A stretch of 64,000 nucleotides of DNA, taken from positions 2,560 through 66,559 of the IMG/VR virus record IMGVR_UViG_2843255297_000002; one strand, written 5' to 3'. Of the stretch, positions 5,281-63,334 are shown in pieces (the stretch's first letter is position 1; each line of letters opens with the position of its first letter). The notes beneath the pieces were generated by a model. That model had not been told where the DNA came from. It did not search any database and was given only the letters and a program-made list of their open reading frames with translations. Position numbers and translations under genes: made by a program. The DNA is from a virus.

Positions 5281-5425
5281 AGAAATAATGATAAAAAACT
5301 TGGACTTAAAACTGATTAAAAAGCCAAAAGATGCATCTATCTTTCTTTTACTCTCAAATTTCTCTCATTGTCGCTACTAGAATGCAAGAATAAGAGTAAA
5401 AAAGTCCCTACAAAATGGCAAGGAT

Positions 5426-5707
5426 TTAATTCAATGCTAATAATTGCTCCATCTCTTTTAACAATTTCTCTGCACCCTCACGACTTAAAATGATTTTACC
5501 GTCTGCCAACTTGAAATTGTCATTAGATACTTCTCCCGTTACCATGCAAGCCATGTCTGGTTTGTATTTTTGTAGAACGATACAATCTTCGTCTAAAAAG
5601 ATTTCCAACGAATCTTTGATGTTAATATCAAGTGTACGACGTAATTCCATAGGTATTACAATACGACCAATCTGATCTAATTTACGAACAATACCTGTTG
5701 CTTTCAT
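5426..5707 (-). CDS. AbrB/Abh-family transition-state regulator
   Basis: MKATGIVRKLDQIGRIVIPMELRRTLDI...LQKYKPDMACMVTGEVS closely follows the AbrB pattern. Confidence 0.92.
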   Translation of the reverse strand: MKATGIVRKLDQIGRIVIPMELRRTLDINIKDSLEIFLDEDCIVLQKYKPDMACMVTGEVSNDNFKLADGKIILSREGAEKLLKEMEQLLALN

Positions 5708-9201: not shown

Positions 9202-12200
9202 TTACTGAAATGTGTCAAGAACACTCACGTTACCTACTACGAAAGACTTCTCATGCTTTCCACCAAAAGGTTTAATTTGAGATGAATCGTATTCCATGAA
9301 CGAATCTACTAATCTAAATGTTAATTTCGTGTAACCGATGTATCCTTTGCTAAAGAACTCGTTTTTATTGATCGGTGTTTCTAAATTAGGAACCTGCATA
9401 GGAACTTTATCAGTGTATAAATATGAAGGTAACTCGAACGTGTTAGTATATTCTCTTACAATCAAAACTGTAGTGTCCTCCGCATACCATCCCTTACCAG
9501 TTGCAAGATCATTCGTGCCACGAACTGCGTTTATCAAATCTGCCACTTTTTGCTCCGTTAATTTGGCACCTGTACCATTTTCAAATGTGTTGAAAATGTT
9601 TTGACCGACTGGTGTTGAAATATGCATTTTCGCTAGTGCCTCTTTTAAACCTTGTGGCAAGCTGTTTAAATCATAATTACCGTCAACTGCTACCAATTTA
9701 CCCCCTCGAACAAGCAATGTGTGCTCTACAACATTACGGGATTTCTGTTTCAACTTAATCGCTTTTTTCTTACCACCATACTCAACACCGTTGATTTTTA
9801 ACTTACCTTCAGCATTGAGTGCTACTTCCCAAGTTCCATCCGATTTCTTCGTTGCATAACGACTCAAAAACTCTTCGTTTATCTTATCAGTCGAATAAGT
9901 TGTTGACGGATTCCATGCGTTTTTGAGCGATGTTGCCCCGATATCTAATGCAAATGTTTTTAACTCTAACTGACCTTTTGTTTGGAAGTTTGTAGTGATT
10001 GCTGAACCTTTATAAAGAACACCCTTACCATTAGCTCCTAATCTACTTGCAAGAGCTTTTGCATTCGCATCTGTTGCTACCGACATGCCGGTTACAGAAG
10101 GCTTGATGTCTACATTCACGAATTGTGCTACATTGTAGTAAACTGGTTGCACTTGTCTCATTTTATCTCCTGCTACAAATGCTACTGATGTGTTCCCGTT
10201 AACATCATCATATACCATCGGAACCTCTGGATTGATGTTTAGTACTTGCTTATCTTGTTTCACTTCCGTATATTTACCATTCACTGAAGTTACAACATCT
10301 TTAAACTTTTTAGGTGCTTGATTAGCTTTCGGAATGTGTCTTCTGAAATTAACTGTCACATCATAATCAGCTGTCTTTGCACTACTTGTTGCTTGTCCAC
10401 TCCACGTATAAGGAACATAATAACCTGATGAAATTAATTTGCCATCCTTATCGTAAGTAGGTGGCACCCATCTATAACGTGTCTCGCTATAACCATAAGA
10501 TGCATAAGGGCTTCTTACCCCATATTTAAACATATAATTCTTCACTACCAATGGTTTGTTTTCTGCTACACCTTTATCTGTTACACCAATCCGACCATCA
10601 AATAAACTATACGGATTTACCCAAGATGCTAATTTTACATTACCAACAGAACTGTTATCTTTTACTGCTAATAAATCACCTGCTAAATTAAATGCTGCCA
10701 CCGTGTCATAAGCCGATAAATATTTAATTGTTGTGTCATTAAATAATTTTGCCTTGCTGTAAGCCCATTTCACATTGCTTAAATCTGGATCAATTAAACT
10801 AAAGTTTACATCACCAGTAGGAGATAAAACGGGATTTATAAACGTCTCAGAAGGTAACGTTAATGAGAAAATCGCTTTTGCTACACTATTTTTCGAAATA
10901 TCCTCGAAATACTTCGATAATCTCCACTCTGGTACATCATGACTCGATGCCGATACGTTTGTATCTTCAACTGCTTTTACATATAGCGTTAATCGCGCAT
11001 TTGAAAATACATCTTTACCTTTCTCTTTAACACCTTCGTATTTATTCTCTACTGATGAGATATTATCACCATCTCCACCAAGATATGTGTGTAGATAAAC
11101 TGGTTCTGGTGTGTCCCAACCAAGCATGATTTCCCAAGTGTTTGGATTATTCAATGAGATGTATCCATCTTCACCTTTAGATGACTTTGTTAAAGTAGAT
11201 TTATTGATATTTTCATTGTCACGTTTATCTACTAACGTGAATTTTGCTTTTTCTTCTTGAAGAATTTGATATGTCTTACCGTTATAAACAAATGTCATAC
11301 CACCTTTAATTATTTTGGAATCCTCAGAAGTTAATTTACCTAGAAACTTATTATCACTCTCTGACCAACCTTTTACTGGTGTCCGGAAACCACCTTTTCT
11401 TGCGCCTGTTTTATCTACTATCGATACATCTAACATCACGTCTATTTTCGGTGCTTTAGTGTGGTCTTCAAGATAAATATAACCCCAAGGTTGGTACCCC
11501 CAACCACCAAATGGGTTCTTCGATACATCTGCTGTTAACGGTACGTTTTTACTCATTGGTTTTAACGTTCTCGCATAATTATCTCTAGCATACGTTCTGA
11601 ACGTAAACGGTATATTACCATTCTCTTTATACGGTGACCTTAGTCCATCTGCCTCCGTACTGGCTCCACCTTTTGTTACAGCTTCTGCTTCTCTATTTGC
11701 TGATAACTTCTTTAATTTGCTATCGGTAGGTCTAGCCTTTTTTCTAACCCATAAATACCAATCTGTCGCATCATGAATCGACATAAATGCATAATCCCTT
11801 GATAATGGACTCTTATTATCTTTTACACTGATCCCTACTAATGTTTGAGCAAAGAATACTACCTCTTTATTTCTGTATGCTTCGCGCATCATACGCTCAA
11901 ACTTATCATACTGCTCACCTTTTAAGATTCCTCTGGCTTTAATTAACTCTAAATAACCATTAAACATATCTGACGCTGCTTTAGCATATGCGTCATTATC
12001 GTACCCCTCCATAGATAAAACATACCATTCTAACATATCCCTGAAAGACTCTCCTACAATTCCTGGTCCTGCTAACGTTCTGTTCGGATTTTTAGGGTCG
12101 ATATTGTATAAAGCATTACCTACAATACTTACAAATGCGTTGTCGCTGTTTTTTGATACATCTGCATAAGATAAAGTCCTTTTCATTAACTCTTCACGAC

Positions 12201-14364
12201 TTTGACCACCTGTACTGCCTTTATATAAAGGGTTTTTACCATATAATGTCTTAACTCTGCTACTTGAACCTTTATTCTCAAATGTTATTACACCTGAACC
12301 CGTCTTTCTGAATAATCCATCTGATACCTTGTTTGGTGCCATGTAGAATAACAAATGATCATAGTTGAATTTGAATGGATCTTGAAGGTCTTGCTTACTC
12401 GATTCAGAATTCAATATCCCTACACCATTAGCCTTTAACTTATTTGGAATAAAACCTACTTGTACTACTGCTACTCGATCCGATGTCTGGAATGTTCCAG
12501 CAGGTGTACCACTTGTCGCTCCACCCTTCGCAGGTGGTGTTCCTCCGATATTAGTGTCCGATGCTACTACACTCAATGGTGCAAAAGATGAAAAAATCGA
12601 TGTTAATAATGCACCAACTAATAAAATACTCATCAACTTTGTTTTAGGTGCGGAAATTTTACCATTTTTCCTGTAAAACACATAACTGCCAATAGCCCCG
12701 ATTAGCGATAGAATGAATAACACTAACATGATATAAATATCATCTCCTGTATGAGGTGTTGATACAGAACCCCCAAACACAACTCCTACACCTAATACAA
12801 CCTTTGTCTTAAAAGACTTTAGATCAATCGCTACTGTCGTTATTTTCCCAGTGTCATTATCCTTTAACATATACGATTCACCGGGTGCTACCGCAAAAAC
12901 TTGACTGCTTTTACCCTTGTATGCTTTTTTCGAGATTTTATCTACATTGATTACACTAAAGTTGTAGTCTTTACCGTCTTTATCAACCTCTAAGACATAT
13001 TTAGGTGAAAATACTATACCTAAAGATGCCGTACCGCCCTTTACTGTAACTGTTGAAGTCCTTAATTTCACATTTGCATATTTGGATTTAACAACTTCTA
13101 CTTTATATGTCCCATCTGGAATACCATAAATCTTTTGCGTGTTCAAATTTACCGTTTGTGTGATCACTGTTTTCCCATTTGTTAATTTAATATCTGCTTC
13201 TGCCCACGATTTGCTTAAATCCGTGTTGCCTGACACTTCTGGTTTAAGATCAATTACCCCAAGCTCTTTTTTATGCTCAAATACTACCGAATACGTTAAT
13301 ACTCCAGTCTGCCCACCAGTCACTGCCGATACAGGCAACTCGATTAACGCTTTACCATTTATACCGCCCTTTACTACTCTGTCTTCCGATGACACCAAAA
13401 ATTTCGGTGTTAATTTATCTCTGTCAACCCACACCATTCCTCTATCATCAGATACTAAAGACAAACTCCCTTTCTTATCAGATAACTTAATCTCAATATG
13501 AAACTTCTTAAGTGGTGCGCCTGACTCATCCACTAACGCTAAACCTACTTTATTATTGTCGGTGTAAAGAGCTCCTCCAATTGGACTTAATTTTGTACCA
13601 GTTAAATCTCTTATTGCTACCTCTTTACCTTCCTCCCCTTCATAATAATCAAAAGTCTTAATGCCGAATTTATAATACGTGTTTGGTTTCACATTGTATG
13701 CTTTTTCATCAACAAACTCGATGTACTTAAATACCTTATCTGCCTTGCGAGGAATCAAAGCGAACTCATCGCCTAATTTGTAACCCCTATGATTAAACAT
13801 TAAGTGATATACACCTGACTCACGATCATAATTCTTACTGTTGGCTATCGCTGTACCAATTAATTTATTCTCCTTTACAGACCAAAGCTCTAATGTGAAC
13901 TCTGGAATATATGTGCTCTCGGATTGCTCTGGTGTGTAGTAAATGTCTACATACAGCCCATCTTTTACAACTCTTCCTGACTTGTCCGTTACTACTTGAT
14001 CTTTAACTTGTTCATCCTTTGGTTGAGAAGTAACTTGCTGATTTTCTGGTTGAGATTGTTGATTCTCTTGTTGAGGTGTAACTTGTTGATCCTCTGGTTG
14101 AGGCTGCTGATTTTCTTTCTGAGGTGTGACTTGCTGATTTCCTTCTTGAGAATTAACTGCATCCTGTCCCCCTTCTAAACCATTAGATGCTGACTGATCC
14201 GATATAATCTGATTATTTACTTCTGTCACTGACTCTGTTCGCTGTTGCTCAGTTGCTTGGTTTTCTTGCACCGTAACAACCGAATCGCTATTCGCTAAAG
14301 CCGCTGTCGAAACCGATGAAAATATTAATGATAATGCTAAAACTGAACTCGATACTTTTAACAT
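9202..14364 (-). CDS. Large secreted/cell-surface protein (1720 aa) with internal sorting signal and second signal-peptide-like segment
   Basis: N-terminal signal peptide (ALA-N), Gln-rich 16-aa repeats, internal TPHTG+TM+RKNGK, then KTK-hydrophobic-VVA. Confidence 0.85.
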   Translation of the reverse strand: MLKVSSSVLALSLIFSSVSTAALANSDSVVTVQENQATEQQRTESVTEVNNQIISDQSASNGLEGGQDAVNSQEGNQQVTPQKENQQPQPEDQQVTPQQENQQSQPENQQVTSQPKDEQVKDQVVTDKSGRVVKDGLYVDIYYTPEQSESTYIPEFTLELWSVKENKLIGTAIANSKNYDRESGVYHLMFNHRGYKLGDEFALIPRKADKVFKYIEFVDEKAYNVKPNTYYKFGIKTFDYYEGEEGKEVAIRDLTGTKLSPIGGALYTDNNKVGLALVDESGAPLKKFHIEIKLSDKKGSLSLVSDDRGMVWVDRDKLTPKFLVSSEDRVVKGGINGKALIELPVSAVTGGQTGVLTYSVVFEHKKELGVIDLKPEVSGNTDLSKSWAEADIKLTNGKTVITQTVNLNTQKIYGIPDGTYKVEVVKSKYANVKLRTSTVTVKGGTASLGIVFSPKYVLEVDKDGKDYNFSVINVDKISKKAYKGKSSQVFAVAPGESYMLKDNDTGKITTVAIDLKSFKTKVVLGVGVVFGGSVSTPHTGDDIYIMLVLFILSLIGAIGSYVFYRKNGKISAPKTKLMSILLVGALLTSIFSSFAPLSVVASDTNIGGTPPAKGGATSGTPAGTFQTSDRVAVVQVGFIPNKLKANGVGILNSESSKQDLQDPFKFNYDHLLFYMAPNKVSDGLFRKTGSGVITFENKGSSSRVKTLYGKNPLYKGSTGGQSREELMKRTLSYADVSKNSDNAFVSIVGNALYNIDPKNPNRTLAGPGIVGESFRDMLEWYVLSMEGYDNDAYAKAASDMFNGYLELIKARGILKGEQYDKFERMMREAYRNKEVVFFAQTLVGISVKDNKSPLSRDYAFMSIHDATDWYLWVRKKARPTDSKLKKLSANREAEAVTKGGASTEADGLRSPYKENGNIPFTFRTYARDNYARTLKPMSKNVPLTADVSKNPFGGWGYQPWGYIYLEDHTKAPKIDVMLDVSIVDKTGARKGGFRTPVKGWSESDNKFLGKLTSEDSKIIKGGMTFVYNGKTYQILQEEKAKFTLVDKRDNENINKSTLTKSSKGEDGYISLNNPNTWEIMLGWDTPEPVYLHTYLGGDGDNISSVENKYEGVKEKGKDVFSNARLTLYVKAVEDTNVSASSHDVPEWRLSKYFEDISKNSVAKAIFSLTLPSETFINPVLSPTGDVNFSLIDPDLSNVKWAYSKAKLFNDTTIKYLSAYDTVAAFNLAGDLLAVKDNSSVGNVKLASWVNPYSLFDGRIGVTDKGVAENKPLVVKNYMFKYGVRSPYASYGYSETRYRWVPPTYDKDGKLISSGYYVPYTWSGQATSSAKTADYDVTVNFRRHIPKANQAPKKFKDVVTSVNGKYTEVKQDKQVLNINPEVPMVYDDVNGNTSVAFVAGDKMRQVQPVYYNVAQFVNVDIKPSVTGMSVATDANAKALASRLGANGKGVLYKGSAITTNFQTKGQLELKTFALDIGATSLKNAWNPSTTYSTDKINEEFLSRYATKKSDGTWEVALNAEGKLKINGVEYGGKKKAIKLKQKSRNVVEHTLLVRGGKLVAVDGNYDLNSLPQGLKEALAKMHISTPVGQNIFNTFENGTGAKLTEQKVADLINAVRGTNDLATGKGWYAEDTTVLIVREYTNTFELPSYLYTDKVPMQVPNLETPINKNEFFSKGYIGYTKLTFRLVDSFMEYDSSQIKPFGGKHEKSFVVGNVSVLDTFQ

Positions 14365-17312: not shown

Positions 17313-17325
17313 GCTAGTATGTATA

Positions 17326-17397
17326 TGGAGCATATCGGATTCGAACCGATGACCTCTTCGCTGCCAGCGAAGCGTTCTCCCACTGAACTAATGCCCC
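17326..17397 (-). tRNA. tRNA-Ala(GGC), element-borne, no encoded CCA
   Basis: GGGGCAT/ATGCTCC acceptor stem with G3:U70, CTTCG-CTGGCAG-CGAAG anticodon arm, ATCGG-TTCGAAT-CCGAT T arm. Confidence 0.93.
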
Positions 17398-17624
17398 ATT
17401 CTTATGACACTTTTCATTATGGACACTACTTATATTATCATAAAAAACAGAAAAATATCAACTACAAAATGCACTCCCATTCGTCATTTTACCCTATCCT
17501 TTTATAAAAATCATTTCTTGGATTCACCGTCATATTCACATAATAAATGCTATTTGCTATACTTTTGCTTGAATAGAACACGAAGCTGTTTTTCAAGGAT
17601 TTTGGGCAGTGTAACTGACAAGCG

Positions 17625-17646
17625 TGGGAGAGCGTCGTGCTGGCAG
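17625..17646 (+). repeat. attL core of prophage (22 bp)
   Basis: TGGGAGAGCGTCGTGCTGGCAG, identical to 63047-63068 inside tRNA-Ala; ~150 bp upstream of the integrase. Confidence 0.92.
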
Positions 17647-17792
17647 GAGTCAATTCCCTTTCTAGTGCCAAAATTCCCTTGGTTGCAACGTTTTTGGCTA
17701 AAAAGTGCACAGAGCTCACTGACAGAGCTACCCCGAGCGAGAAACAGACCTCATAGCTGGGAAGAAAAATCTCGGCTAGGAGGTCATTTTTT

Positions 17793-18701
17793 ATGCTCAT
17801 CGAACTCGCATGGAAAGAAATGCTTGCTGACAAAAAACTGGAAGGACTTACCCCTAATTCCCTCAGAAGCTATGACTCACTGTGGGGAACTTTCTCCAAG
17901 TATCTCCAAGAAATGGGTATTGAAAGAACAGACCAACTCAACCCTCGAGTCATTAAGGGCTACCTCAAATGGTGCGAAGAACGAGGAAACAACCCTGTAA
18001 CGATTAATGGCAAACTCAAGCTCCTGAGAGCCTTTGGGAAGTGGCTCCATGAGGAAGGAATTACAGAGGAATATTGTTGCAGGAACGTTAAGGCTCTAAG
18101 AGTTGATGAAAGCCCTCGTATAGTTAAAGAGGGGGATATTCGCAAAGCCCTCTCCTATTTAAGACGCATGAAAAGACGTGAGGATAGCTTCTATGCTATA
18201 AGAAACCACACAATTATTATATTCCTTATAGGAACTGGCTTGCGAGCTGGGGAGCTTTGCGCTCTCAACTGGGAGGATATTGACTGGGACGAGTCACTCA
18301 TTATTCTCCGTAAGACAAAAAACAGAAAACTCTCGAGTGTCCCAATGAGCGAGACGGTCAAGAGGGAGCTCTCCTCGTGGCAGGCTTATGTTGACAGACA
18401 CTTTAGAGAGCGTCCAAAACCATTGTTTTGTACTCGAGAAGGTGAACGACTCACTAGAAATGGCATAAGACTTATGTTTCAACGTCTCAGAGAGCGAGCT
18501 GGCATAGAAGGAACATTTTGTGCTCACTCTATGAGAAACGTATTTATTAAGAACTTACTCAAAAACAATGCAAACCTCCGAGAAGTCCAACTTCTCGCCA
18601 GACATTCCAAGATTGAGGTCACTAAGCAGTATGTTGGATACTTTCAGCATGAACTCAAGGACGCAATCGACGAACACGACCCTCTCAAAGGTTTGTATTA
18701 A
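17793..18701 (+). CDS. int: Tyrosine integrase
   Basis: TGLRAGEL (R), KTKN (K), HSMR, LARHS..TKQY catalytic motifs; N-terminal SAM-like domain; AGGAGG SD. Confidence 0.95.
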   Translation: MLIELAWKEMLADKKLEGLTPNSLRSYDSLWGTFSKYLQEMGIERTDQLNPRVIKGYLKWCEERGNNPVTINGKLKLLRAFGKWLHEEGITEEYCCRNVKALRVDESPRIVKEGDIRKALSYLRRMKRREDSFYAIRNHTIIIFLIGTGLRAGELCALNWEDIDWDESLIILRKTKNRKLSSVPMSETVKRELSSWQAYVDRHFRERPKPLFCTREGERLTRNGIRLMFQRLRERAGIEGTFCAHSMRNVFIKNLLKNNANLREVQLLARHSKIEVTKQYVGYFQHELKDAIDEHDPLKGLY

Positions 18702-24806: not shown

Positions 24807-26483
24807 GTGCTACCAATCAGTCAACTCAACGAGTTAAAACGCAAACTCCAAGACCCTATTGAGTTCACCACTATCACGGGAACAATCAAAGGGAAACCTT
24901 TTAGCTTTGAAGGGAGAAACCACTTACTCGATGTTTACCGAGACCCTCACCCTCGCATAGTTATCGTTGCAGGACGACAAGTTGAAAAGTCCGAGACGGT
25001 TTGCAGAAAGCTCCTCTATCACCTCTACACAAGACCCCACACAACAATAACCTACACAGCTCCTCGTAATGAGCAAGTCACTCGCTTTGTGAATGACCGC
25101 TTTAGAAAAGCCATAGCAGAGTCCAAAGGAAAATTACTCGAGCACTCCGTTGACAAGAAGCGTGACGCTAAAACAGCCATTGGCTTCTCCAACTCGAGTA
25201 TTGTCTACTTTGGCTCAGCATGGTCTGATGGAGACGCTCTCCGAGGTATCTCTGGAGATATGGTGTTCTTTGACGAGGTGCAAGATATAACTCAAACAGC
25301 GATTGAAGCTATTGAGAAGTCTGTCTCCCACTCGGAGATAAGAGATAACGAACTCGAGATTAATGGACGCTGTTTCTACACAGGGACACCTAAACAAGCT
25401 GGCTCCTACTACCACAGAGTGCTCTGGGGACAGTCAGACCAAAAGAAGTGGCAAGTCACTTGTGTTCATTGTGGTCACGAGCAGTTTCTCTCCATGAACA
25501 ACATCATGGTTGAGAACGAAGGAACCGACAAAGAGCGCAGATACTTTGGCTGTCTCGAATGTGGAGGCGAGCTGGATAGAACTAACGGAAGATGGGTGCC
25601 AACGAAACCACAAAACAAGTTCTACTCTGGCTATTTATTCTCCCAGCTCAACATGCCATGGATTTCAGCCAATCAAATATGGCGAGATTATATGACCATG
25701 GACGCTATGACATTCGCCAATGAGGTACTTGGTGAGTTCTACTCTGGTAGCGAGCAACCAGTCTCCATTGAGGACGTTCTCGCTTGCACAGACAGAAACC
25801 TTGCTCTCAAAACTAGCTCGACCATTCCAACTGTCATGGGTATTGACTATGGCTCTGGAGGCAAGTCGAAAACGATTATTCACATTGGACACCGAGAAGT
25901 TATTGGTGGCAAGCGCAAGCTCGTTATCGACTACATTGAAAACTGCAAGATTGACAACCATGAGGAGCTTGTTGCTCACATTGTCAAACTCGCTGACCGT
26001 TTCAACGTTGAGAAGATTGTTGGAGACATTGGTTATGGCTCCTATGAAGCTCAAAAGCTCTTTGAGATTTTTGGACGAATGGCAATAGCTTGCAGATATG
26101 TCACTTACCAAACTGACCCTAAGAAGCGTGAATACAAGGGAGAATACACTCTCCAAGTTGACCGTACTTACTCCATGGACTGCCTCATTGAGATGTTTAA
26201 GCGCAGAGAGATTGTCATTCCTTACAAGGAACCAGAAAAAGTTGAACCATTCTTTGACCACTATACAGCCCTCGAGTTGAAATTCTCCGAGTCTACAACC
26301 TCCACAGGTCGCAAACTTTACGACCACACTACCCCAGATGACGCATTCCACAGCTTGAACTACGTGAGAGAAGGACTCTACGAGGTCGAAAACCGTTTTG
26401 AGTGGGCTGGAGTCGAACGTGAGGACTTTAATAGCCGCATTTTTGACGACATTGACGAGCTACCTAGCGAGAATGACTGGTAA
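24807..26483 (+). CDS. terL: Terminase large subunit (lambda GpA-like)
   Basis: GRQVEKSE Walker A variant, VFFDE Walker B, GTP coupling motif, CxxC..CxxC, MGIDYG nuclease motif, PDDAFH. Confidence 0.92.
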   Translation: MLPISQLNELKRKLQDPIEFTTITGTIKGKPFSFEGRNHLLDVYRDPHPRIVIVAGRQVEKSETVCRKLLYHLYTRPHTTITYTAPRNEQVTRFVNDRFRKAIAESKGKLLEHSVDKKRDAKTAIGFSNSSIVYFGSAWSDGDALRGISGDMVFFDEVQDITQTAIEAIEKSVSHSEIRDNELEINGRCFYTGTPKQAGSYYHRVLWGQSDQKKWQVTCVHCGHEQFLSMNNIMVENEGTDKERRYFGCLECGGELDRTNGRWVPTKPQNKFYSGYLFSQLNMPWISANQIWRDYMTMDAMTFANEVLGEFYSGSEQPVSIEDVLACTDRNLALKTSSTIPTVMGIDYGSGGKSKTIIHIGHREVIGGKRKLVIDYIENCKIDNHEELVAHIVKLADRFNVEKIVGDIGYGSYEAQKLFEIFGRMAIACRYVTYQTDPKKREYKGEYTLQVDRTYSMDCLIEMFKRREIVIPYKEPEKVEPFFDHYTALELKFSESTTSTGRKLYDHTTPDDAFHSLNYVREGLYEVENRFEWAGVEREDFNSRIFDDIDELPSENDW

Positions 26484-26515: not shown

Positions 26516-27787
26516 ATGGGTTTATTTGATAAAATTCGTCAACGCTTACCTTGGAGCACATACGCTCAAAAGGAACAAGAACTTCTCGAGGTCGCTAGAG
26601 AGCTTTTTGGTGAGGTAGGTATTTACAAGGACGACACTTATGAGCGCCCAGACCAAGAAGATTTCAACCCTAGCGACTTCACTTTTGAGGTTTACGACAA
26701 AATGCTCAAGGACGGTCAAGTCAAAGCTGGGCTTGATATGATTAAGCTTTCAGCGACATCTCGAGGCTTCACTGTTACAGGGGACGACCCAGAGACGAGA
26801 AAATATGCTGACTTCATTAACCAAAACTTTGAAATGCTTCAAGGCAACCTCGAGGACACAATTGCTGAAATGCTTTCAGCCCTAGAGTATGGCTTCTCTT
26901 GCACAGAGAAGGTCTTTGAGTACAAAGACGGAAAAATTATGCTTAAAAAGCTCAAAGTCCTTGACCCTCATACGATTTCCGTCAAAACTAACAAGTTTGG
27001 TGACATTGAGTATGTCATTCAGCGAGTTGGCTCTAAAGAGATTAAGATTCCTCGTAATAAAATTATTTGGTACGCATATGACAAACGCTTTGGGAACTTA
27101 TATGGCAACTCTATTCTCCGCAACGTTTATAAACACTGGTACATTAAAGACAAAATGTACCGTTTCGCAAACATAGCATATGAGCGTTATGGAACTCCGT
27201 TACTCATTGGGAAAGTCCAAGACGCTCGAGACGTGAACAAAATGACAAAGCTCCTCGAGAAGATTAATGCCATGACTGGCTTGGCTATCTCTGGGGGAGA
27301 CGACATTAAAGCGATTCAAGGCTCAAATGCTGACTTTATTGGCTACATTGAACACCATGACCGCAAAATTATGGAGGCTATGTTAGTCCCTCCAATGCTT
27401 CTGGGTCTCTCTCGTGGGCAGTCTGGCTCTTATGCCCTCACTGGGAACCAGTTTGACATTTTCATGATTCGCTTGGAAGCCCTCCAACGTGACCTCAAGA
27501 GCCTCATTGAGGAGGAAATTATTCGCCCTCTCATTGACTTAAACTTTCCGAACGTTAAAGCATACCCTGCTTTCAACTTCAAACCACTTGCCAATGAGGA
27601 CATTGAGAAAATGGCTCGTGTGTTCAACATGATGATTCAAGCTCAAGTTATTGCTCCAACTGAGGAGTGGATTCGTGAGGAGCTTGGTTTCCCTGTTGCC
27701 CCTCGAAAACTCGAAGGAGAACAACCAGACGAGGAAGAACAACCAGAGGAGCAACCTCAAGAGGGGGAGAACTCGGAGGGAAAGTAA
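26516..27787 (+). CDS. Portal protein (Mu gp29/DUF935-like)
   Basis: ALEYGFSCTEKV, NLYGNSILR, ERYGTP, GSYAL, IIRPLIDLNF motifs; follows terL. Confidence 0.92.
   Translation: MGLFDKIRQRLPWSTYAQKEQELLEVARELFGEVGIYKDDTYERPDQEDFNPSDFTFEVYDKMLKDGQVKAGLDMIKLSATSRGFTVTGDDPETRKYADFINQNFEMLQGNLEDTIAEMLSALEYGFSCTEKVFEYKDGKIMLKKLKVLDPHTISVKTNKFGDIEYVIQRVGSKEIKIPRNKIIWYAYDKRFGNLYGNSILRNVYKHWYIKDKMYRFANIAYERYGTPLLIGKVQDARDVNKMTKLLEKINAMTGLAISGGDDIKAIQGSNADFIGYIEHHDRKIMEAMLVPPMLLGLSRGQSGSYALTGNQFDIFMIRLEALQRDLKSLIEEEIIRPLIDLNFPNVKAYPAFNFKPLANEDIEKMARVFNMMIQAQVIAPTEEWIREELGFPVAPRKLEGEQPDEEEQPEEQPQEGENSEGK
27778..27784 (+). promoter_or_regulatory. Predicted -1 ribosomal frameshift site G GGA AAG at the portal stop
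   Basis: In-frame X XXY YYZ heptamer immediately before TAA; AGGGGG 10 nt upstream; 14-bp stem 27790-27803/27900-27913 downstream. Confidence 0.7.
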
Positions 27788-29802
27788 AAGCCTCCGAGCT
27801 CCTACCTCGTAAGTATCTCTCCTTTGCTGAGAGACGGAGACGAGCTGATGTTCAACTCATACAACGAGACTTTGACCGTCTGGAGGACGAGTTTATTAAG
27901 GGGGCTCGGAGGTTAGACACTAAGCGGAGAGCTCAACTCGTGGAGCGTGTCGAGAAGATACTTGACGAACTCCAGCGAGCTTATGAAAATGGAGATAAGG
28001 ACGAAGTTGAGGGCATTCTCAAAAGCATTCAAATGCCAAGCCAGAAAGAATGGCGCAAACTCATTCGCAAGCTCATTTACTCCGCAACGGAGGCTGGCAT
28101 TCTCAGAGCTCACTTTGAGCTTATGAGGCTCAAAGAGCTCTATGAGTTTGCTGAGGACACTTGGACAGTCGTTGACGAAGGCTATGACTATGATGTTATT
28201 TTCCCTCAAGAAGCTCGTGAGTTTCTCGACAAATACAGCCTTGAAATTAGCGTCATTACTGACGAGACTGTCCTTAACCGCATTAGAGAAGAACTCCGCA
28301 AAGGTCTCGAGGAAGGCATTAGCACTAAGGAGCTTATTGAAAACATTCAAAGAACCTCAGAGACTTGGCTCAGCGAGTGGCATGCTCAAACGATTGCTCG
28401 GACGGAAACTGGCAAAATGTATAATGCTGGGAGACTGGCTCGCTGGCTTGACCCTGAGGTTAATGGCTTTGTTGAGGCTCTCCAATATGACGCTATTATT
28501 GACAGACGCACAACCGAGCTATGCAGACACCTTGACGGAAAGATTGTAAGCATTAAGCGAGCTGACGTTATAGCAGAATATACTCCACCAAACCACTTTC
28601 AATGTCGCTCTACTTGGTTGCCAGTCACGAAGCATGAAGAATGGGAAGATGACTTCCCTACTGACATAGAGCCAGAAAAGGGCTTTACATTCAAGGCTCC
28701 CCTCCCTAAACTCCTCCAAGGAAAAACAGAGCCTCTAGTGCAACCTAAGAAGAAAATTGACCCTCGAGAAGTCACTGACCCAGACGTTATTCGCAACTTG
28801 CCAGGCGATGACTTCAAGGTTGCTATTGGTAACATTAAAGACATAGCTCTCAAGCTGGCTCTCGTTAAGGAACGGGCTGAGAAAATGCTCGTCAGAGAAA
28901 CAGGGCTCAAAGAGGAGGTTGTTGACGCTCTCTTTACTTACTGGGGTTATAATAGCGATGAGCTAGAGGGTAGCTTTGAAATGTTTGACACTCTCTACAA
29001 GTTCTATATGACTCCAGAAATGAGGGAAACAGTCGAGGAGCTAGTAAGAAAACTCTATGACGCTGGCGACAACTATGGCAACGAAGCTCTCCGAGAGGTC
29101 ATTGAGGAGTTTGCCAAGGAGTATGGCTCAAAACCAGAGTATGCTGACCTCATAGCAAAACTAAAACAGGGTATTTCACAAGCTCGCTACAAAATGACTT
29201 GGAACGGACTCAAGCCAGTTGAACAAACCGAGGAGTCCAAGAAGTTGCTTACTATGAAAATGCCACCTCGGACGGCTAACTTTAGAAATGCTACTGGCTT
29301 ACAGCAAGCCCTCAAAGAGGCTCAAGCATGGCTCCTCAAGTATGTTGACCCTAAACTTGCTCCTAAAACTGGCATAAAGGTAAGATTCCAATATGACCTC
29401 TACCGAGCATACGCTACTGGAGCAAGCGGAGAGGTTTACTTTGGGGCGATTGAGAAAGAGGCTGGAGTTGTTGTTCACGAAGTAGGACACGTTTTCCACT
29501 GGAATAACAAAGCAGTTGCAGACCTCATAAATGAGTTCTACCAACAACGGACGAAAAACGATAAAATTACACTCTACCAAGGCGAAAAAACCAAGAGAGA
29601 CAACTTCTACAACCCTTATGTTGGTCGAGTTTATGGATGGGAGCGGAGATATGAAAGTTCTAAGTATGCAACTCGTGAGTTTATGGGTCAAGAGGTGCTC
29701 TCTATGGGGATTCAAGCCCTTTATGAGAACCCAGAGAAGTTCTACCAAGATGACAAAGAGCATTTCTTGCTCACATACGCTATTTTGAGGGGGTTGTTCT
29801 AA
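27784..29802 (+). CDS. MuF (SPP1 gp7-like) head protein with C-terminal HExxH metallopeptidase-like domain; frame open from the portal stop
   Basis: TIARTE, DRRTTELC..LDG, PPNHFQCRS MuF motifs; HEVGH and EVLSMG; no ATG/GTG/TTG between 27679 and 27939. Confidence 0.88.
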   Translation, partial: VKASELLPRKYLSFAERRRRADVQLIQRDFDRLEDEFIKGARRLDTKRRAQLVERVEKILDELQRAYENGDKDEVEGILKSIQMPSQKEWRKLIRKLIYSATEAGILRAHFELMRLKELYEFAEDTWTVVDEGYDYDVIFPQEAREFLDKYSLEISVITDETVLNRIREELRKGLEEGISTKELIENIQRTSETWLSEWHAQTIARTETGKMYNAGRLARWLDPEVNGFVEALQYDAIIDRRTTELCRHLDGKIVSIKRADVIAEYTPPNHFQCRSTWLPVTKHEEWEDDFPTDIEPEKGFTFKAPLPKLLQGKTEPLVQPKKKIDPREVTDPDVIRNLPGDDFKVAIGNIKDIALKLALVKERAEKMLVRETGLKEEVVDALFTYWGYNSDELEGSFEMFDTLYKFYMTPEMRETVEELVRKLYDAGDNYGNEALREVIEEFAKEYGSKPEYADLIAKLKQGISQARYKMTWNGLKPVEQTEESKKLLTMKMPPRTANFRNATGLQQALKEAQAWLLKYVDPKLAPKTGIKVRFQYDLYRAYATGASGEVYFGAIEKEAGVVVHEVGHVFHWNNKAVADLINEFYQQRTKNDKITLYQGEKTKRDNFYNPYVGRVYGWERRYESSKYATREFMGQEVLSMGIQALYENPEKFYQDDKEHFLLTYAILRGLF

Positions 29803-29804
29803 GC

Positions 29805-30101
29805 ATGTTGAAGTTTACCTTTGGGGGAGTGCCAGTTGAAATATGGTTTGCTCCCTCTTTCAGCATAAAAACGACTGATAAACGCATAGAAATGCTTTTT
29901 CGTAAAGCGAAAATTGAGACTTATGACCCTTTGAAGAAGAAAATTAGAGAGGTCAGACCGTCTCGCAGTGAGTTTGAGGCTTATTTGTACCTCGAGGAGA
30001 TTAAAAACAGGGTGCCAGAGCTTAAAATTGAGCTCGAGGAGTACCCTCCTCTCCCTACTTCAAGGGATAAAGAGAACAAAGACGCTCCAATTTTGGAGTA
30101 A
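29805..30101 (+). CDS. Small protein, candidate immunity protein of the MuF toxin
   Basis: Starts 2 bp after the MuF stop with GAGGGGG SD; function assigned by position only. Confidence 0.55.
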   Translation: MLKFTFGGVPVEIWFAPSFSIKTTDKRIEMLFRKAKIETYDPLKKKIREVRPSRSEFEAYLYLEEIKNRVPELKIELEEYPPLPTSRDKENKDAPILE

Positions 30102-30519: not shown

Positions 30520-31839
30520 GTGAAACAAGTGGCGCTAAAGATTGCCAAGGGTAAAGTCAGCGAAAAGGACTGGAGTAGCGTCGACAAATCTTCTATATGG
30601 CGCAGATTGAAACAAGCGCTTGAGAACGGAGAACAAGGCGCTACCGAGGCAGTACGTGAAATGTACGCAGTTGTTAAGGCTCCTATCAATGCTGACTTGA
30701 CACAAGCTGATTGTTGGGCTCCACACCATGAGATACAAGGAGACACTTTAGTGTTGAATAAAAATGGTCTCGTTGCGGCTGTTGCGGCTCTCGCTGGTGC
30801 TCGCTCAGAGCCAAACTTGACAGCTGAGCAAAAACGAAAAGCCGCAAGACATTTGTTGCGCCATTACAGAGCGCTCGACATGGAACCTCCAGAGTCGCTC
30901 TTACGAATGGCTGGCGAGAAAATGTCTAACTCTGAGGAGGTAACTTGCTTGAATGAGAAATTATATTACATTGGCAAATTTACTGAGACAGTAGCCAATG
31001 AGCAAGATGAAGATATGCTCAAAATGGCTGAGTTGTTCTCCGTTGGAGTACACCGAGGAGTTGAATATACCGAGCAAGACCTTGAGGAGTTAGCCAATAA
31101 CTTTGACCCTAGCGATGAGGTACCAATTCAGATAGACCACTCAGAAAGTGCCAAAGATACAGTCGGCTATTTGGAAAGCGTTGAAGTGAAGGACGGAAAA
31201 CTCTTAGGAGTTTTACGCATTATTGATGACTTTGCCAAGGAGCGCATTAGAAAGAACCTAATGAAAAAGCTGTCTATTTCATTCTACTTGAAGCACACTG
31301 AGGAGGGATTCAAGCCTTACAAGTTGCGCGAGGTCTCGCTAGTGGCTTTCCCTCAAGTAAAGACAGCTCGGTTGTTTAGCGAGAATGGATATATTTCCAC
31401 ATACGAGGAAAACAAGGAGGTTGGAAAGATGGCTGATAAAGAAAAAGCTGTCAATCTTAGCGAATTGAGAGCGGAAATTCGCAAGGAGATTGAGCAAGAG
31501 ATTCATGCAGAGTATGCTGAACTAACAAAACGCTTGGAAGCTCTTGAAAAAGTTCAGCAACAATTCAGCGAGTCTCAAGTGAAAGCGAAAATTGAGGCTT
31601 TCCAAGAGGAAAACAAAATTGTCCCAGCACAAGTTGACGCTCTTGAAAAACTCTTGAAAACATTCAACGAGGAGCAAATGGGTTTATTCGATGAGTTTAT
31701 GAAAAACTTCCAAAAAGTTGACCTTTCTGAGCAAGGCGAAGTCCAACAACCAGAGAAAGAGCAAGAAAAAGACCAAGCTCAAGATGACTTTGAAAAATTC
31801 TATGAGGAGTATGTCAAAAAATACGGTCGTACTCTGTAA
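30520..31839 (+). CDS. Capsid maturation protease/scaffold (Mu gpI-like) with extra N-terminal domain
   Basis: PIQIDH..VGY..LSISF..LREVSLVAFP protease pattern; coiled-coil C-terminus; internal SD+start at 30949 and 31429. Confidence 0.82.
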   Translation: MKQVALKIAKGKVSEKDWSSVDKSSIWRRLKQALENGEQGATEAVREMYAVVKAPINADLTQADCWAPHHEIQGDTLVLNKNGLVAAVAALAGARSEPNLTAEQKRKAARHLLRHYRALDMEPPESLLRMAGEKMSNSEEVTCLNEKLYYIGKFTETVANEQDEDMLKMAELFSVGVHRGVEYTEQDLEELANNFDPSDEVPIQIDHSESAKDTVGYLESVEVKDGKLLGVLRIIDDFAKERIRKNLMKKLSISFYLKHTEEGFKPYKLREVSLVAFPQVKTARLFSENGYISTYEENKEVGKMADKEKAVNLSELRAEIRKEIEQEIHAEYAELTKRLEALEKVQQQFSESQVKAKIEAFQEENKIVPAQVDALEKLLKTFNEEQMGLFDEFMKNFQKVDLSEQGEVQQPEKEQEKDQAQDDFEKFYEEYVKKYGRTL

Positions 31840-35879: not shown

Positions 35880-36227
35880 ATGGCAAACAAACCTTGGTTG
35901 AAAAAGAATGACGAGAAAGTGATTGAAGTAATGGGTGCTAAGATTACACTTAAAAAGTTGACGTTTGGTGAGTCTCGTAAAGCAGTTAAAGAAGCTATGA
36001 AATTCAACCCTATTACACAAAAAGCTGAGGTTGACCCTTCTCTTATTGGAGTTCTTCGAGCTCTCTACCAGATTAAAGACTGGGATTTGACGGACGAGAA
36101 CGACAACAAGCTCCCTATTACTCTTGAAACGCTTGACAACTTACATGAGGACTTTGTTGCTCAGTTAATTCAAAAGATTAGCGAGCAAGATGACAATGGA
36201 GTCACAGAAGAAGAAAAAAAGCAATAA
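35880..36227 (+). CDS. Tail assembly chaperone (G-type)
   Basis: IKDWDLTDE..LPIT; ends in A AAA AAG slippery site at 36215-36221. Confidence 0.85.
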   Translation: MANKPWLKKNDEKVIEVMGAKITLKKLTFGESRKAVKEAMKFNPITQKAEVDPSLIGVLRALYQIKDWDLTDENDNKLPITLETLDNLHEDFVAQLIQKISEQDDNGVTEEEKKQ

Positions 36228-36469
36228 GGTCGGCTGTCTTAAAGAGCTTGGAGGGCAAGAAAGTCGAGAACCCTCCAGAAGCCTTGCAAATTTATGAGCT
36301 CTGTCGAGAGTTTGGTTGTCTCCCTTCTCAGTTAGAGCAGGAGGACAACAAAACAATTGAGGAGCTCATTTGTGTTATGAACGCAATTAACGAATACCAC
36401 TCCAGACAAAACAGGAGAGAAAACAGAAAGGAGCTTGCCAGAAAACTTGGTGGAGGACAAAGGAGGTGA
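36221..36469 (+). CDS. Tail assembly chaperone -1 frameshift extension (GT-type)
   Basis: -1 frame open from the slippery site; LCREFGCLPSQL; precedes the tape measure gene. Confidence 0.8.
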   Translation, partial: AIRSAVLKSLEGKKVENPPEALQIYELCREFGCLPSQLEQEDNKTIEELICVMNAINEYHSRQNRRENRKELARKLGGGQRR

Positions 36470-62971: not shown

Positions 62972-63030
62972 AAATAGTGTGAAAATTCCCTGCTATGAGG
63001 TCAATAAGGCTCAAACCCTTGATATACCTT

Positions 63031-63103
63031 GGGGCATTAGCTCAGTTGGGAGAGCGTCGTGCTGGCAGCGCGAAGGTCACCGGTTCGAGCCCGGTATGCT
63101 CCA
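63031..63103 (+). tRNA. tRNA-Ala(GGC) containing the attR core (63047-63068)
   Basis: GGGGCAT/ATGCTCC stem with G3:U70, CTGGCAG anticodon loop, GGTTCGAGCC T arm; terminator at 63111-63141. Confidence 0.95.
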
Positions 63104-63334
63104 TTTGCCCAACCCTTGCCGTGCAAGGGTTTTTTATTTTTGTTTCGGGAGATGGCGATGAGCCATCCCCCTGTGAACAAATTCCCAAAAGAAGCCTCCC
63201 ACCATCTAAACGTGAAGGGGCGCCAGCACCAGTGAACGACCTGACTGAACCTCAAATCGTGGGGCACACAAGAAATCGCTCGGTTCACGTCCCGTCATGA
63301 GATGAGACTCCTCGGACTCTTACGCCCTTCGGCT

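Follow-up and report, generated by a model that had tools for sequence, protein, structure and literature searches.

Predicted programmed -1 frameshifting at the portal-MuF junction of Andromeda-like phages

How does a phage produce a MuF protein whose reading frame offers no start codon where its coding sequence begins? We met this question in a 64,000-nucleotide (nt) stretch of viral DNA (IMG/VR record IMGVR_UViG_2843255297_000002, positions 2,560 to 66,559), hereafter the window. The gene for its portal protein of 423 amino acids (aa) lies at 26516-27787 (plus strand, like the other head-module features below); the protein is of the Mu type (PF06074, E 1.7e-62) and ends in a Glu/Gln/Pro linker. 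Relative to the portal, MuF is read in -1, in a frame that stays open over 27679-29802 and whose first ATG, GTG or TTG is a GTG at 27940. A preliminary description of this DNA proposed that a programmed -1 frameshift fuses the portal to a MuF metallopeptidase, and a comparison of 39 distinct junctions strongly supports that core idea. It is very probable, judging from sequence comparison, that a -1 frameshift at the last portal codons lets a minority of portal chains run on into MuF, and MuF is likely made mainly as a C-terminal extension of a few portal-ring subunits. Support comes from the slip site, the -1 register, coding conservation from the site onward, a fixed spacing and stem covariation.

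A slip site where the portal gene ends

Portal identity is 67-78% to Andromeda-like Bacillus phages in 38 GenBank records and 44% to Rossellomorea phage phiT1. GenBank, IMG/VR and metagenomes yielded 71 close loci including the window; six lacked a full junction, and the 65 usable loci gave 39 distinct junctions, which are related by descent, so that counts over them are not independent events. Nine GenBank records were examined, covering the seven Ehrlichviridae genera listed in the summary from the virus taxonomy committee ICTV (PMC12451628), six through the exemplar or type phage given there and Gettysburgvirus through the close relative 276BB001. This comparison covers the portal, at the 67-78% identity given above, and MuF; the ICTV 2025 criterion is 15 shared core proteins plus clade membership.

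In all 39 junctions MuF lies in the -1 frame after the portal stop, and none is a continuous single frame. The junction is also typical in DZ1, which has a duplicated stretch in the portal end, and in MVC_VPHSA1, which has an additional frame break inside MuF. The frame break is not an assembly slip, because contigs of four runs from four studies (one run possibly the source of the window) contain no indel at 27775-27790 and the same register is kept in relatives. The sole difference in those contigs is 12 nt inserted in frame at 27721, within the linker.

The portal gene ends GAG GGA AAG TAA, and the slippery heptamer G GGA AAG (27778-27784) abuts the stop codon (27785-27787). Among the 39 junctions, 21 carry G GGA AAG, 14 carry A AAA AAG and two carry G GGA AAA; the remaining sites are one G TCA AAG and one G TCT TTT. 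A heptamer thus stands at 37 of 39 junctions, compared with one of 136 other open reading frame (ORF) ends, scored over their last two codon positions, and with 29 of the 16169 codon positions within portals. Of 726 occurrences of Gly-Lys or Lys-Lys elsewhere, 14 are spelled as a heptamer, and the first three bases of the heptamer alternate between GGG and AAA as a block among relatives. G_GGA_AAG and A_AAA_AAG are among the best frameshift motifs reported for E. coli, where A_AAG and U_UUY are the best tetramers (PMC4066793); the two non-heptamer junctions match these top tetramers in the same ranking.

The position of the site is informative as well. Three junctions (L008, L045 and L061) have a -1 frame stop directly 5' of the slip site, and therefore the entry point into the -1 frame is pinned. 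The portal stop falls one codon later in Anath (L033) and L067 and about 25 codons later in L053, where the slip site is reduced to U_UUU, while in all three the site is still 6 nt before the stem core. Therefore, the site is tied to the stem rather than to the stop, which argues against a mutated GTGA start/stop overlap.

Conservation breaks down in both frames 5' of the slip site; the last 30 aa of the portal are a mere 25% identical to relatives, so the linker is unconserved. A zinc-finger-like Cys/His segment precedes the slip site in the portal C-termini of L017-L026, L034 and L046. The window also has a Shine-Dalgarno (SD)-like AGGGGG at 27762-27767, 10 nt 5' of the slip site (-11.0 kcal/mol). 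Elements of -6 or better occur in 16 of 39 junctions versus 14% of control windows, and they accompany 15 of 21 G GGA AAG sites versus one of 14 A AAA AAG sites. The SD-like sequence is likely an optional stimulator, and Glu-rich linker codons confound its count. The preliminary description had recorded the heptamer, AGGGGG and the portal end correctly and likened the whole to the E. coli dnaX arrangement; this likeness holds for heptamer and stem and is weaker for the SD, which the window has but fewer than half of the junctions carry.

A covarying stem and a conserved transframe segment

Downstream, a 14-bp stem with three G:U pairs, formed by 27790-27803 and 27900-27913, pairs fully as described earlier. 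Its conserved core (27791-27798 with 27905-27912) begins 6 nt 3' of the heptamer, and variable inner hairpins are enclosed between the arms. The region 27785-27920 folds at -52.4 kcal/mol (z -4.57), and none of 200 shuffles was as stable. Comparative analysis of the stem covered 35 of the 39 junctions, leaving out two with N, phiT1 and L053. In the closing helix 92.9% of cells are paired, against 84.5% in shuffled and 27-53% in slid controls, the latter contrast being inflated because the helix was read from the same sequences. The covariation score is 0.336 versus 0.183 +/- 0.017 for shuffles (0/500), and RNAalifold predicts the same closing helix.

At two pairs C-G and U-A replace each other with zero unpaired cells in 35 rows (25/10 at one, 26/8 plus one U-G at the other), and two more pairs are changed on both sides in L057 and L067. 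The 5' arm changes at the swapped pairs fall at third codon positions, whereas their 3' partners alter the amino acid (Gln/Arg, Arg/Lys); therefore, the protein sequence follows the RNA pairing. In 34 of 35 junctions the stem region folds more stably than its synonymous recodings do (median z -4.3). In L053 a 72-nt insertion within the stimulator (5297-5533) folds its own hairpin and pushes the portal stop downstream, and the closing helix is kept. A 3' structure at the spacing of 5-8 nt that characterizes bacterial -1 frameshift signals of the dnaX/IS3 type is thus predicted by folding and covaries. In the clade of the window only, the 5' arm has an alternative partner: a modeled hairpin (27761-27808, -27.6 kcal/mol) joins it to the SD plus the bases preceding the heptamer and could attenuate shifting.

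The 52 codons between the slip site and the first possible start (27784-27939) encode conserved protein, as frame and identity comparisons indicate. Their -1 frame has no stop in 35 of 35 junctions, whereas the other two frames have stops in 34 and 35 of 35. Mean identity to the window is 49% in the -1 frame and 28% and 26% in the others; the next 100 MuF residues reach 42%. From residue 28-29, the transframe protein also matches two PHROGs of fused portal-MuF proteins, 2662 and 19480. Counted from the slip site, the -1 ORF (27784-29802) encodes 672 aa with a conserved N-terminal segment, a MuF/SPP1 gp7 domain (28279-28614; PF04233, E 7.2e-19; TIGR01641, E 1.2e-20), a middle domain and a zincin domain. 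The resulting portal-MuF fusion would have 1095 aa and 127.5 kDa. The open frame, its first start, the fusion size and the protein-like character of the 52 codons were all reproduced from the preliminary description, and the junction alignment it had set as a check returned the -1 register, the heptamer and stem covariation.

We infer slippage, its rate, ring incorporation, processing and toxicity. A ribosome would pause at the branched stem, whose arms lie about 105 nt apart, and the Gly/Lys and Lys tRNAs would re-pair one base back (the A-site tRNA alone at the two tetramer sites), with assistance from the SD in some lineages. Most ribosomes would stop and release the portal, and the remainder would make the fusion. 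The portal ring has 12 subunits. At an assumed efficiency of 3-25%, these subunits would bring about 0.4-3 MuF into each head. This agrees with the few copies of SPP1 gp7, which enters the head by binding the portal and aids infection (PMC6316719). Recoding would provide, as a covalent linkage at a set ratio, what gp7 achieves through portal binding.

Alternative origins of MuF and known systems

Several observations weigh against a programmed frameshift. Two of five helix measures did not stand out clearly from shuffles (26/500 and 95/500), the helix was scored on the same sequences that had defined it, and its cells count sequences, not events. phiT1 (L035) has a different predicted stem, at similar spacing, and in L031, L033, L053 and L067 the slip site was placed manually. 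A weak SD (-6.6) precedes GTG 27940 in the window, an SD of -6.4 to -6.6 precedes an ATG at codon 20 in six Andromedavirus-like junctions, and a Met at codon 30 (Phe in the phage of the window) is present in 27 of 35 junctions with an SD of -3.0 or weaker; a weak separate MuF start in some lineages is possible. Additionally, virion mass spectrometry of Anath lists the portal among eight proteins and not the MuF product (PMC7368026), a result of low sensitivity and hence of little weight.

These starts bear on the view that MuF arises from an internal start (GTG 27940 here, other Met or Leu codons in relatives), with the heptamer and stem incidental or serving a minor fused form. We consider this very unlikely. 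All nine GenBank records examined annotate a separate gene, but their starts disagree, ranging from before the portal stop to codon 78. Weak SD-led starts within 90 codons occur in 10 of 39 junctions, yet none is common to all, and GTG 27940 is present in two of 35. In conservation codons 1-52 match the remainder of MuF, and the candidate starts fall within or right after the conserved structure. Such starts had been named in the preliminary description as evidence that would tell against frameshifting and do occur in this weak form; a continuous fusion, named likewise, was not found among close relatives in searches that are weak as negatives, and the heptamer, whose lack of conservation had also been named, is kept in 37 of 39 junctions. 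Termination-reinitiation at a non-standard GTA or ATA overlapping the portal stop, a decayed GTGA, is even harder to credit. Of 35 junctions, 31 open the -1 frame with GTA and two with ATA, GGAGG lies 4 nt before GTA in the window, and the distant loci L072, L134 and L139 have a true ATGA overlap in the same register. However, reinitiation leaves the en bloc GGG/AAA switching of the heptamer unexplained, the A AAA AAG lineages mostly lack an SD, conserved coding starts before the stop overlap in L033, L067 and L053, and a stable stem 6 nt downstream would be expected to impede initiation.

We give almost no credence to the view that an ordinary in-frame fusion gene was split by an indel or an assembly error, or that transcriptional slippage corrects it. 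In-frame portal-MuF fusions exist in 21 of 70 distant loci, in line with the earlier remark that some phages have them, but searches among close relatives, weak as negatives, found none. The same junction recurs in lytic cultured phages and in contigs of four studies, and G GGA AAG contains no long homopolymer run, so this alternative is largely refuted already. Thus, both alternatives raised in the preliminary description, the mutated overlap and the broken fusion, are disfavored.

The distant fusions also support the programmed frameshift, because they show the fused architecture occurring naturally. Beside the 21 fusions, the 70 distant loci (25-32% identity) comprise 14 with separate genes, 29 without a MuF hit and six truncated; no terminal heptamer was found in the 14 separate-gene loci. 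A profile of the first 60 transframe residues gave weak matches (E 3e-4 to 0.06) to a portal-contiguous segment in six distant loci. A portal tree covered 50 selected rows, of which 20 were frameshift, 19 fused and 11 separate, and was rooted at the midpoint only; in it the frameshift group forms one side of a 100/100 branch. The portals of four distant loci (L072, L082, L097 and L111) are about 600 aa long and carry, at the C-terminus and in frame, a homologue of the N-terminal transframe segment. In L072, L082 and L111 the core of MuF stands as a gene of its own, so the gene boundary has moved.

The slippery sequence of lambda G/GT is GGGAAAG. In lambda G/GT and SPP1 17.5/17.5*, a low-level -1 shift near the stop likewise sets a fixed ratio of short to extended morphogenesis proteins (30:1 in lambda; PMC5009743), but these tail chaperones are different genes whose products are not virion parts, and the phage of the window has a chaperone site of its own. 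T7 10A/10B, A2, Listeria A118/A500/PSA and Privateer, the last described with the same GGGAAAG, are reported to extend a share of a structural protein at its C-terminus; here, in contrast, the extended protein would be the portal, and what is added would be a head gene that is otherwise separate, placed by analogy with gp7 on the interior of the head. The signals of E. coli dnaX and IS911/IS3 are described as sharing X_XXA_AAG, a structure 5-8 nt downstream (branched in IS911) and an optional SD 6-17 nt upstream, whereas the closing helix of the window spans about 105 nt of coding sequence and the SD is confined to some lineages. The single-ORF portal-MuF proteins reported for Microbacterium clusters EA3/EA5/EA8 and EB (PMC7302621) have the same fused architecture but place MuF on every translated portal chain, not on a frameshifted share.

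Tail chaperone, capsid and tail frameshifts, in-frame portal-MuF fusions and MuF toxins are already in print. No portal frameshift emerged from literature searches, reviews and papers on these phages in the text available from them; the nearest remark is that PRFect mentions MuF-like genes among unannotated predictions. If true, the portal joins the phage genes known to be recoded, the few MuF copies at the portal vertex are explained without a separate binding step, and the annotated MuF starts are wrong throughout a family of cultured Bacillus phages. Its members can be grown on B. subtilis and B. pumilus, making MuF copy number, role and cargo delivery testable via one heptamer, and the branched long-range stimulator with its natural compensatory variants is a useful recoding model. 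A wider proposal, which we offer tentatively and doubt in its full form, is that portal-MuF recoding is a general, overlooked third route of MuF loading besides separate genes and in-frame fusion. Its efficiency would set the MuF-bearing share of the 12 subunits, leaving the ring asymmetric by design; in long forms it would dose a new family of zincin toxins, which are packaged within a portal polyprotein and, like Gag-Pol, freed by proteolysis.

Predicted peptidase cargo and surrounding genes

The MuF domain sits directly 3' of the portal gene, as in MuF polymorphic toxins. As reported for SPP1 gp6-gp7 and MuF toxins (Jamet et al. 2017), MuF stands beside the portal, has few head copies and can carry a C-terminal enzyme and a small downstream ORF; however, gp7 is a separate portal-binding protein. 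The term "frameshift" is absent from the main text of Jamet et al. In the window, a predicted zinc metallopeptidase domain (29212-29799) has an invariant HExxH (29476-29490), a further invariant Glu (29692-29694) and a zincin fold. It matched no named toxin family, with no Pfam or NCBIfam toxin family above cut-off. Such a peptidase is predicted on MuF in this phage and 11 other junction types, and the other 27 of the 39 junctions lead to a short MuF without an HExxH domain; therefore, recoding serves MuF itself. The preliminary label of a portal-tethered toxin is accordingly too narrow.

A 98-aa ORF (29805-30101), a candidate immunity gene without a family above cut-off in family searches, follows MuF directly and has homologues (27-63% identity) after every long MuF with readable downstream DNA (8/8, plus L006); none was seen after the 27 short MuFs. 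A small ORF (<150 aa) directly downstream is a feature of MuF polymorphic toxins, found here in long forms only. From co-occurrence and domain content, the peptidase and the linked small gene are probably a toxin-immunity pair, and exit from the head would require cleavage of the predicted toxin from the portal. That the HExxH domain is instead a maturation, self-release or anti-defense protease, and not an antibacterial toxin, is quite possible, though we lean slightly against it. Besides the missing toxin family match, the best fold matches include non-toxic Pro-Pro endopeptidases, and the long-form cultured relative vB_BpsS-36 was reported without an integrase (PMC6375668). On the other side, the domain is a swappable C-terminal module of MuF1 and MuF2 proteins (42 of 68 scanned, among the 150 listed of 3935 matches), three of the scanned domains stand behind intein/HINT domains, co-occurrence with the small gene is strict, and metallopeptidases are given as 20% of MuF toxins (PMC5576092).

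The gene order terminase-portal-MuF-protease-capsid is that of a normal head module. The terminase large subunit (24807-26483; PF05876, PF03237) precedes the portal ATG, whose SD duplex reaches -9.8 kcal/mol, and the prohead protease/scaffold gene (30520-31839; phrog_976, E 3.1e-46; start uncertain) encodes a possible processor of the fusion. The portal-MuF locus is distinct from the G/GT type of frameshift, which concerns a gene pair upstream of the tape measure gene. The chaperone pair of the window lies at 35880-36469, where A AAA AAG (36215-36221) stands one codon before the stop of 35880-36227 and the tail chaperone ORF is in the -1 frame; this is an ordinary G/GT frameshift site.

A temperate carrier phage is a further feature of MuF polymorphic toxins. 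The cultured relatives are reported as lytic, and the window carries a tyrosine integrase gene (17793-18701), which stands with a tRNA-Ala(GGC) within 17325-18701 at a step in GC content from about 35% to 43%, likely a prophage edge. The low-GC flank includes an ORF of 1720 aa (9202-14364, minus strand) that matches neither PHROGs nor NCBIfam families; a DNA methyltransferase and an invertase are encoded close by. Another tRNA-Ala(GGC) stands on the opposite strand at the far end (63030-63104).
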